This document shows positions 2,003 to 2,719 of a stretch of 64,000 nucleotides of DNA, in pieces (within the stretch, counting starts at the first letter, position 1; every line of letters starts with the position of its first letter). The stretch is from Escherichia coli O157:H7 (lineage in GTDB: Bacteria; Pseudomonadota; Gammaproteobacteria; Enterobacterales; Enterobacteriaceae), in NCBI RefSeq assembly GCF_013167455.1, contig NZ_CP038328.1; one strand, written 5' to 3'. The position numbers and the translations under genes were made by a program. The notes beneath the pieces are model-generated. The model was not told the origin of the DNA, ran no database searches, and saw only the letters and a list, made by a program, of their open reading frames with translations.

Positions 2003-2719
2003 ATGAAGGATGGTGCGCTGCTCAGGAGTTCTTCACTTTTTATTGCCTACATGGGATGCCTTGGATGGGGGAGTGCTTATTTCTATGGATGGGGTACTTC
2101 TTTTTACTACGGCTTCCCATGGTGGATTGTAGGTGCAGGTGTTGATGATGTTGCCAGAAGTTTATTTTTTGCAGTTATCGTCATTGCTATATTTCTTATC
2201 GGTTGGGGTATTGGTGTTGTATTCTTTTTCGCAGTGAAAAGAAAACATTCTATGCAAGAGCTAAATGTATTTCGCCTTTATTTTGCTGTGGAATTATTGT
2301 TTGTGCCGGCAATTATTGAGTTTTCTATATTGAGACAGAAGATTCAGGTACCTCTTTTGCTACTGTCAGCAGCGATTGCGCTGGCGGTCACAATTTCGAT
2401 AAGATCTTATGGGCGATTTTTATCGGTATCATGCTTCTATGATAAGCCATTTATAAAAAAACATTTTTTTGAGATTGTGATGATTGCTTTTGTGGCATAT
2501 TTCTGGCTTTTTTCATTTCTGACAGGATATTACAAACCGCAGTTTAAGAAAGAATATGAAATGATTAATTATAATGATGGTTGGTATTATGTTCTTGCTC
2601 GTTATGATAATTGTCTGGTTTTGTCTACTTCTTTCAATGCAGGTAGTAAAAGGTTTGTGATTTATCAATCAGCACAAGATAAGAATCTTCAGGTTGATAT
2701 TGTAAGGACCAGAATTTAA
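2003..2719 (+). CDS. Hypothetical multi-pass membrane protein (phage moron in the post-Q slot)
   Basis: ORF 1961-2719; start placed at ATG 2003 preceded by GGGGTGG RBS. Translation has at least four long hydrophobic segments (e.g. FFAVIVIAIFLIGWGIGVVFFFAV, VPLLLLSAAIALAVTISI, FFEIVMIAFVAYFWLFSFL) and a ~60-aa hydrophilic C-terminus. AT-rich. No recognisable family. Confidence 0.5.
   Translation: MKDGALLRSSSLFIAYMGCLGWGSAYFYGWGTSFYYGFPWWIVGAGVDDVARSLFFAVIVIAIFLIGWGIGVVFFFAVKRKHSMQELNVFRLYFAVELLFVPAIIEFSILRQKIQVPLLLLSAAIALAVTISIRSYGRFLSVSCFYDKPFIKKHFFEIVMIAFVAYFWLFSFLTGYYKPQFKKEYEMINYNDGWYYVLARYDNCLVLSTSFNAGSKRFVIYQSAQDKNLQVDIVRTRI

Follow-up and report, generated by a model that had tools for sequence, protein, structure and literature searches.

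Cargo genes (morons) of lambdoid prophages such as lambda bor and lom, prophage lpxR, nmpC of DLP12 and stx lie between phage modules, have a base composition foreign to them, and encode outer-membrane or secreted proteins of known activity. The present analysis concerns a similarly placed gene of Escherichia coli O157:H7, an open reading frame (ORF) of 238 amino acids (aa) at positions 2003-2719 on the + strand of a 64,000-nucleotide stretch of contig NZ_CP038328.1 (hereafter, the window). As with the genes named above, the prophage probably expresses it and phage growth probably does not require it. Unlike their products, the window protein is an inner-membrane protein, and no sequence or fold relation was found between it and the products of bor, lom, lpxR, nmpC or stx. 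It is close to certain that the gene encodes a TfpB-family (PF27470) inner-membrane protein and is carried as a moron.

Prophage-encoded proteins of the inner membrane are known from superinfection exclusion, P22 SieA and HK97 gp15 being inner-membrane exclusion proteins that work at the periplasmic face. Set beside these two by description, the window protein is likewise small, polytopic, probably prophage-expressed and possibly active at the periplasmic face, but unlike them it has no detected homology to a known defence family or viral protein fold.

Only one member of the TfpB family has experimental data, the Salmonella gene STM1630 (SL1344_1560), whose 238-aa product is 46% identical to the window protein and has the same architecture. 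The identity of the Salmonella homologue as STM1630 was verified by the record entry, a 717-bp gene for a 'putative membrane protein' adjoining sseJ, and by a published knockout primer that encodes NSSMLLAYLGGLGWG, matching the homologue. The supplementary Text S1 of one study places STM1630 between the effector genes steB and sseJ, states its function as unknown, and describes it as missing from S. Typhi and as attenuating in calves and chicks when disrupted in earlier signature-tagged mutants (PMC6785131, Text S1). According to the same supplement, STM1630 is bound by H-NS, is on in macrophages and in medium inducing Salmonella pathogenicity island 2 (SPI-2) in strain 4/74, and is silenced by two single-nucleotide polymorphisms in the -10 box in all ST313 strains tested (PMC6785131, Text S1). 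STM1630 is also included in a 123-gene cluster that is positively co-regulated with SPI-2 (PMC2639726). Like STM1630, the window gene is AT-rich, horizontally acquired and solo. In contrast, STM1630 is chromosomal (steB-sseJ), H-NS-bound and SPI-2 co-regulated, whereas the window gene stands behind a lambda pR' and a promoter-like element of its own, and the upstream DNA is not conserved between the two.

The Pfam name TfpB derives from Moraxella, because the internal ORF of the classical pilin inversion segment of that genus was named tfpB; a description of Acinetobacter baylyi also uses the name, for an unrelated pilus ATPase. The Moraxella proteins are homologous to the window protein over almost their full length (27-29% identity, E 1e-19 to 6e-16), as in M. 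bovis with 27% identity over residues 9-236 (E 1e-19; tblastn, contig L035). The M. bovis protein (261 aa) is similar in length to the window protein and has the N-terminal motif AYAYGWGQAAYHGYPWW in common with it, and the predicted folds agree (TM-score 0.78 for the Moraxella caprae protein). In Moraxella, the gene is chromosomal, lies between pilin genes and adjoins the piv recombinase gene; the window gene, unlike it, is prophage cargo with no pilin gene near.

Results

The ORF is a TfpB-family gene under purifying selection

The reading frame is uninterrupted on the + strand from 1961 to 2719, and translation from ATG 2003 yields 238 aa. RefSeq and the phage 434 record place the start at ATG 1976, giving 247 aa. 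The sequence GGGGTGG, a Shine-Dalgarno element, lies at 1994-2000, just 5' of ATG 2003, and the aligned methionine is the start of the full-length homologues, which are mostly 236-238 aa (the codon is GTG in the copy from enterotoxigenic E. coli, ETEC). Because of the Shine-Dalgarno element and the lengths and aligned starts of the homologues, we think that ATG 2003, rather than 1976, is the true start.

The GC content of the ORF was 36.5%, compared with 50.0% for the window, 50.8% for the antiterminator gene Q and 55.3% for the NanS-p-like esterase gene, and the ratio of nonsynonymous to synonymous substitution (dN/dS) against seven homologues was 0.05-0.18. By these sequence measures, the ORF is a real gene under strong purifying selection. 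The initial annotation, which had been made without database searches, described an intact, AT-rich ORF for a 238-aa multi-pass membrane protein, and this description was borne out. It had also named, as one circumstance that would overturn it, a degraded remnant with no conserved homologues; the frame is intact, dN/dS is low, and conserved homologues are described below.

A precomputed match to PF27470 (TfpB) was present on the 247-aa form of the protein (100% identical) and on all 104 homologues, and the protein matched PHROG 1521 (E 1.7e-154), which carries no assigned function. A known family was therefore found where the initial annotation had recognized none, although neither PF27470 nor PHROG 1521 has a described function. 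Its term 'undescribed' cannot be kept, since both families exist, phage 434 annotates the gene, and the 46%-identical STM1630 has expression and infection data. Exhaustive profile searching of 1.84 billion representative proteins yielded only 73 matches at E <= 0.001. The named members were from Enterobacteriaceae, Neisseria and Pasteurellaceae, to which a genome scan added Moraxella.

Other searches returned no family. The NCBIfam scan gave no accepted match, and its single weak match, to CrgA (E 0.39), was discarded. A direct scan of Pfam-A returned noise only, the library copy being one without the PF27470 model. None of the defence models of PADLOC-DB 2.0 matched (0 families at E<=1), and no match was obtained to a lysis family (holin, antiholin or spanin); the holin, endolysin and spanin have annotated genes of their own further downstream, and TfpB homologues are found in plasmid and chromosomal settings that lack lysis genes. 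No useful publication came up for WP_001302581, ECs0816, phage 434/434B or further Salmonella locus tags.

Transcription of the gene is likely independent of Q

The initial annotation proposed that Q-dependent late transcription would drive the gene. In lambda, pR' is constitutive and Q acts on the downstream terminator. The window is nearly identical to lambda from within Q through pR' and the initial transcribed bases, and this homology ends at approximately 1806-1812. The lambda-like pR' lies at 1766-1794 on the + strand (-35 TTGACT 1766-1771, 17-nt spacer, -10 GAAACT 1789-1794), with a -10-like AATAAT near its transcription start; by analogy to lambda, the element would be active as a promoter. 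This lambda-Q junction was present in approximately 571 complete genomes.

Homology of the window to phage 434 extends from approximately 1843 to 3025 and is near-identity from approximately 1880 to 2940. In 434 and in the Sakai prophage Sp3, a terminator lies between Q and the gene, consisting of AAACCCGCUGCCGAGUGGGU and a 7-8-nt U run (-13.3 kcal/mol, z -3.3). The window retains on the + strand, at 1843-1865, a degraded remnant of this 434-type terminator, AACCUGCCGCCGAGUAGUUUUU, which carries a 4-nt deletion and substitutions. Folding of the remnant gave no hairpin abutting a U run (-4.6 kcal/mol, z -0.6). The sites compared with the window remnant were 4838-4863 of the 434 record (L001) and 3498-3527 of the Sp3 record (L041).

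No terminator-like site was found by scanning the + strand from 1500 to 3137. The first strong intrinsic terminator after pR' is at 3138-3159 on the + strand (9-bp stem with 6 G-C pairs and a T run; -18.4 kcal/mol, z -2.65), and a second, also on the + strand, is at 3257-3278, just 5' of the NanS-p-like gene (9-bp stem; -14.9 kcal/mol, z -4.16). Both lie 3' of the TfpB-family gene and of a small DUF3927 gene that follows it.

Two candidate promoters of the gene's own lie on the + strand, and are consensus matches only. The candidate at 1936-1965 comprises TTGACG (1936-1941), an 18-nt spacer and a TG-extended TATGAG (1960-1965); the candidate at 1956-1985, which came from the consensus scan, comprises TTGTTA (1956-1961), 18 nt and a TG-extended TATCAT (1980-1985). 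DNA homology with the ETEC plasmid copy begins at window position 1932 and takes in CCTCTTGACG...TTTGTTATG, the proteins being only 59% identical. Between pR' and the ORF, no structured RNA was predicted, the fold being no better than that of shuffled sequence (z +0.38).

Because no terminator was found between pR' and the ORF, and pR' is constitutive in lambda, transcription in the lysogen is likely to be independent of Q and to proceed from pR' and/or the gene's own promoter. With the 434-type terminator degraded and a promoter-like element conserved, Q-dependent late transcription is probably not the main story.

The product is predicted to have five transmembrane helices and a periplasmic beta domain

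An AlphaFold2 model built with 26 close homologues was too poor for use, with a predicted local distance difference test (pLDDT) score of 59.5, and distant homologues were then added. The model from 45 sequences reached a pLDDT of 81.6 and a predicted template modelling score (pTM) of 0.75. Together with hydropathy, it placed five transmembrane (TM) helices at residues 10-36, 47-79, 84-111, 116-137 and 155-181, and it contained a C-terminal five-stranded beta domain of approximately 55 residues (184-235). The architecture first read from the ORF, at least four hydrophobic helices and a soluble C-terminal domain of approximately 60 aa, thus held.

In each of the 20 family members tested, the loops predicted to be cytoplasmic contained 5-10 lysine and arginine residues, and those predicted to be periplasmic 1-3. 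Because of this asymmetry, the protein is predicted to have its N terminus inside and its C terminus outside, with the beta domain in the periplasm. Mean pairwise identity peaked in TM1 (0.84) and in the short periplasmic loop GFPWW (0.78), followed by the first half of the beta domain (0.62), TM2 and TM5, and was lowest in TM4 and the cytoplasmic loops (0.26-0.33). The high conservation of TM1 and the GFPWW loop and the low conservation of the cytoplasmic loops suggest that the constrained surface faces the periplasm. Conserved residues on this predicted face include Y26, Y28, W30, W40, R52 and Y195.

Residues that were invariant or nearly so across the family were exclusively alanine, glycine, aromatic residues, serine and two arginines, and no conserved acidic or histidine set was present in the wide family alignment. 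Because no such set is conserved, binding would be favoured over catalysis. Foldseek returned TM-scores of 0.7-0.9 to proteins of Salmonella, Glaesserella, Neisseria and Moraxella, all uncharacterized, and no fold match among solved structures or predicted viral proteins.

The gene moves alone among prophages, plasmids and chromosomes

Phage 434 encodes a protein 100% identical to that of the window (CPT_434_68, 'putative membrane protein') and phage 2B8 one that is 97.9% identical; no other phage matched among 50,697 phage records, 3 of which carried the gene. Near-identical DNA was found in 691 of 5426 complete E. coli genomes, with two sites in the median genome. Two prophages of O157:H7 encode the window protein (WP_001302581.1). 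One is of the lambda-Q type, as in the window; the other is 434-like, with the order lpxR, ylcG, Q, gene, DUF3927, holin, and its Sakai copy is gene ECs_0816 of prophage Sp3. Two short contigs from metagenome-assembled genomes labelled 'Veillonella sp.' and 'Lachnospiraceae bacterium' (L018 and L019) carry the gene at 100% and 98% identity, respectively, and are most likely mis-binned fragments of E. coli prophages.

Alleles within E. coli diverge from 100% down to 39% identity. In other lambdoid prophages (L014-L016), the gene (68% identical) occupies the same slot, in the order Q, methylase, TfpB, LpxR/PmrD, NanS-p, holin. On the Citrobacter rodentium chromosome (66%), it is divergent from a frameshifted lpxR. 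On porcine ETEC plasmids (59%), it is 866 bp from the heat-labile enterotoxin operon eltAB and divergent from it, with STb and EAST1 nearby. Shigella and enteroinvasive E. coli invasion plasmids carry a 57% identical homologue (106 Shigella records, including pWR100), the Salmonella chromosome the 46% identical gene adjoining sseJ, an E. coli Rep3 plasmid a 39% identical copy, and Avibacterium a 29% identical copy among housekeeping genes.

Between these contexts DNA homology was limited to the coding sequence, except that in the ETEC copy approximately 70 nt upstream were homologous as well, and no neighbour was conserved across genera. A two-gene module with DUF3927 was considered and rejected, as the DUF3927 gene accompanies only the 434-type module. 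Because phage records with the gene are so few, and solo homologues occur on virulence plasmids and chromosomes, the gene is not specifically a phage gene.

Several features of individual contexts were observed. The ETEC homologue (L010-L013; pUMNK88_Ent 17903-20630, L043) lies upstream of the enterotoxin operon in a cluster found on >900 contigs; the idea that the eltAB-TfpB segment is left over from a prophage late region was unsupported, with no flanking homology beyond the upstream DNA mentioned above. A TfpB-family gene and lpxR, the gene for a lipid A deacylase, are linked in three different arrangements, lpxR being frameshifted, adjacent and divergent in C. rodentium (L044 5863-7717), adjacent and convergent in some E. 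coli prophages (L014 7001-8919), and separated from the TfpB-family gene by ylcG-Q in 434 and Sp3 (L001 2666-5717; L045 12892-15942). Neither the window nor the remaining loci fetched contained lpxR. Strains of Aggregatibacter actinomycetemcomitans (L027-L031) have two family members at separate chromosomal loci.

In Moraxella, the M. bovis ORF (261 aa; L035 491-1276) is flanked by two inverted partial pilin ORFs. The M. lacunata order is piv, pilin fragment, truncated tfpB, pilin (L038), and tfpB there is only 195 aa (L038 5974-6561), a truncation which indicates that tfpB can be lost in Moraxella. The Rep3 plasmid homologue lies approximately 1 kb downstream of a gene for a DEDD/IS110-family recombinase, which is the enzyme family of the Moraxella piv product encoded beside tfpB. 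This parallel (L004 4337-5035 and L038 4350-5336) may be a coincidence, IS110 elements being common.

The gene occupies a cargo slot of a lysis-defective prophage

The late antiterminator Q of the window (1100-1723, + strand; 207 aa) is of the lambda type, identical to lambda Q at 202 of 207 residues and annotated by RefSeq as 'antitermination protein'. Upstream of it is a gene for a NinI-type phosphatase (438-1103). The TfpB-family gene is followed on the + strand by that for the 55-aa DUF3927 small membrane protein (2805-2972; named 'TciB' in phage 434). The gene for a 617-aa NanS-p-type SASA/DUF6645 esterase (3380-5233, + strand; RefSeq, DUF6645 domain-containing) bounds the slot downstream. 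The phage 434 gene at the esterase position is annotated as a SASA family carbohydrate esterase, and homologous slot genes have a DUF1737, SASA and DUF6645 composition. The location between Q and the NanS-p and lysis genes given in the initial annotation was thus confirmed. Occupants of this Q-to-lysis slot other than the TfpB homologue are nmpC in DLP12 and, in Sakai Sp4, a CAAX protease together with an AraC-family regulator and tRNAs. These occupants support the moron-slot idea, and from its position and base composition the ORF reads as a cargo gene inserted between conserved phage modules. No tRNA genes were found at window positions 1-10000, slot included.

The phage 434 record describes a laboratory variant, 434B, in which the Q-to-holin region (L001 4081-8650) was replaced by recombination with DLP12. 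DLP12 lacks the TfpB gene and has nmpC in its slot (L046). Because the 434B region was replaced by DLP12 sequence with nmpC at that place, we infer that the gene is probably dispensable for phage growth.

3' of the esterase gene are genes for a class II holin and YdfR and a lysozyme gene truncated by insertions of the IS66 and IS3 families. Within this region (5998-8800), the lysozyme gene is cut after approximately 73 codons by the IS66-family element (tnpA 6304-6684, tnpB 6681-7028), whose own transposase gene is broken by the IS3-family element (IS1203/IS629 type). Because of this truncation the prophage is lysis-defective; the TfpB-family gene is nonetheless intact.

Discussion

The explanation that best accommodates these results as a whole is that of a TfpB-family protein which acts as a non-enzymatic, periplasm-facing binder, is encoded by a mobile moron expressed independently of Q, and serves as a lysogenic-conversion or in-host fitness factor. 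Taken in its entirety, this explanation stands about an even chance of being correct. The functional surface would lie at the periplasmic face and comprise TM1, the Gly/aromatic motif GWGSAYFYGWGxSFYYGFPWW, the beginning of TM2 (DDVARSLF) and the point where TM5 meets the beta domain (YKPQFKKEYE). Through it, the protein would bind a partner on the periplasmic side of the inner membrane and would not serve phage growth. The mobile unit would consist of the coding sequence and the approximately 70 nt upstream that contain the promoter-like element, and would have inserted independently into the late regions of lambdoid prophages, into virulence plasmids and into chromosomal islets. In the window, both membrane-protein genes would lie close to the promoter, in the stretch of the late transcript that is made without Q, and Q would be needed only past the terminators at 3138-3278, into nanS-p and the lysis genes.

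With regard to function, adaptation to the host or envelope is favoured tentatively, at slightly less than an even chance, and a rough split among the functional readings leaves a remainder to 'something else'. By analogy with STM1630, the gene is most likely a lysogenic-conversion or in-host fitness factor, because the only data available for the family point in this direction and the gene has repeatedly been kept beside virulence determinants, and because it is rare in isolated phages and, where chromosomal, lies outside defence islands.

Several points weigh against this explanation. The Salmonella data are weak and mixed: deletion of STM1630 raises intramacrophage fold-replication in strain 4/74 (PMC6785131, Text S1) and has no effect in D23580, and the hypermotility of an STM1630 deletion in one screen (PMC4219756) was unconfirmed on re-testing (PMC4534456). 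The motility phenotype was given no weight, as it was not reproduced. STM1630 is moreover only 46% identical to the window protein and has a different promoter, and its regulation need not transfer. For the window protein itself or any E. coli homologue, no experiment was found in the literature on the accession and ECs0816. The periplasmic placement of the beta domain derives solely from the positive-inside rule, and the domain is itself basic, with 5-11 lysine or arginine residues across the family and nine in the window protein. A transport or channel role may be compatible with the lack of conserved catalytic residues. Lastly, the promoter and 'no terminator' arguments come from consensus scans and folding, and Rho-dependent termination or H-NS silencing of the AT-rich DNA could keep the gene off.

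The main rival is superinfection exclusion or phage defence, in which the protein would act on the periplasmic side of the inner membrane, either keeping out the DNA of competing phages or aborting infection by them. The classic prophage cargo slot and probably Q-independent expression would suit such a protein, as would a single autonomous gene moving among prophages, plasmids and islets, identical copies of which are kept by two co-resident O157 prophages. The predicted periplasmic position of the conserved surface, where phage ejection machinery meets the inner membrane, and the great divergence of E. coli alleles (100% to 39% identity) point the same way. However, PADLOC gave no match, no like fold was present among predicted viral proteins, and very few phage records (3/50,697) carry the gene. 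The Avibacterium copy lies among housekeeping genes, not in a defence island, and the Salmonella copy in a virulence islet; the latter, unlike a constitutive exclusion gene, is off in standard culture and comes on under macrophage-like conditions. Selection is strongly purifying overall, with no diversifying signal. Exclusion is judged unlikely.

Two further roles appear less probable. The Moraxella arrangements, with the M. bovis homologue between inverted partial pilin genes and the M. lacunata gene between a pilin fragment and a pilin gene after piv, would suit an accessory or modulator of the type IV pilus or a related envelope machine that tunes pilus, secretion or appendage behaviour in the lysogen. 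The non-enterobacterial members named are from Neisseriaceae, Pasteurellaceae and Moraxella, which are piliated, naturally competent groups, and the hypermotile deletion in one Salmonella screen would also agree, had it been reproduced. Nevertheless, no other genus examined had a pilus-gene neighbour, the 195-aa M. lacunata gene is truncated in a strain that reportedly still makes pili and still inverts the segment, and the 73 family representatives include no Pseudomonas among named matches, TfpX/Y/Z being probably not detectable relatives. A pilus role is regarded as improbable. Still more doubtful is an orphan immunity protein that would protect the lysogen against a toxin that acts on membranes (a pore-forming colicin, for instance, or a contact-dependent or type VI secretion system effector). 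A small polytopic inner-membrane protein without catalytic signature, encoded by a single, mobile and allelically diverse gene in bacteria that share mucosal niches, would fit this description, and the annotators of 434 named the downstream gene after the tci cluster of phage P1. On the other hand, no toxin gene was adjacent in any context examined, no NCBIfam or Pfam immunity family matched, and the immunity proteins of pore-forming colicins are generally smaller than this 238-aa protein of five TM helices and an extra domain.

A broader reading would make the TfpB family an unrecognized class of horizontally mobile inner-membrane modulators of mucosal pathogens, recruited beside virulence loci and binding a partner that faces the periplasm. 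Recruitment sites would include the stx-type slot of enterohaemorrhagic E. coli, eltAB, Shigella pINV, steB-sseJ, lpxR and the Moraxella pilin switch, and the partner would be, for example, a sensor kinase, or else the platform that a secretion or pilus machine has in the inner membrane. In the O157 prophage, expression would have changed from Q-dependent to constitutive and pR'-driven when the tR'-like terminator was lost. Stated in this breadth, the proposal is speculative and rather unlikely to hold.

The finding is modest, and no new mechanism is demonstrated. Public records already contained the sequence, the family and the position of the gene; the picture across contexts and the loss of the terminator are new. 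The gene is well worth taking to experiment, but is not in itself surprising. It is encoded twice in O157:H7 and has relatives in ETEC, Shigella, C. rodentium, non-typhoidal Salmonella, Pasteurellaceae, Neisseria and Moraxella, with repeated siting beside toxin, effector or lipid A-modifying genes. Knowledge of its function would explain why the gene is kept on the Shigella virulence plasmid and beside the LT (heat-labile) toxin operon, and why it is silenced at its promoter in invasive ST313. The degraded terminator constitutes a natural experiment, in which cargo behind a lambda-type pR'/Q unit may have gone from Q dependence to constitutive expression.

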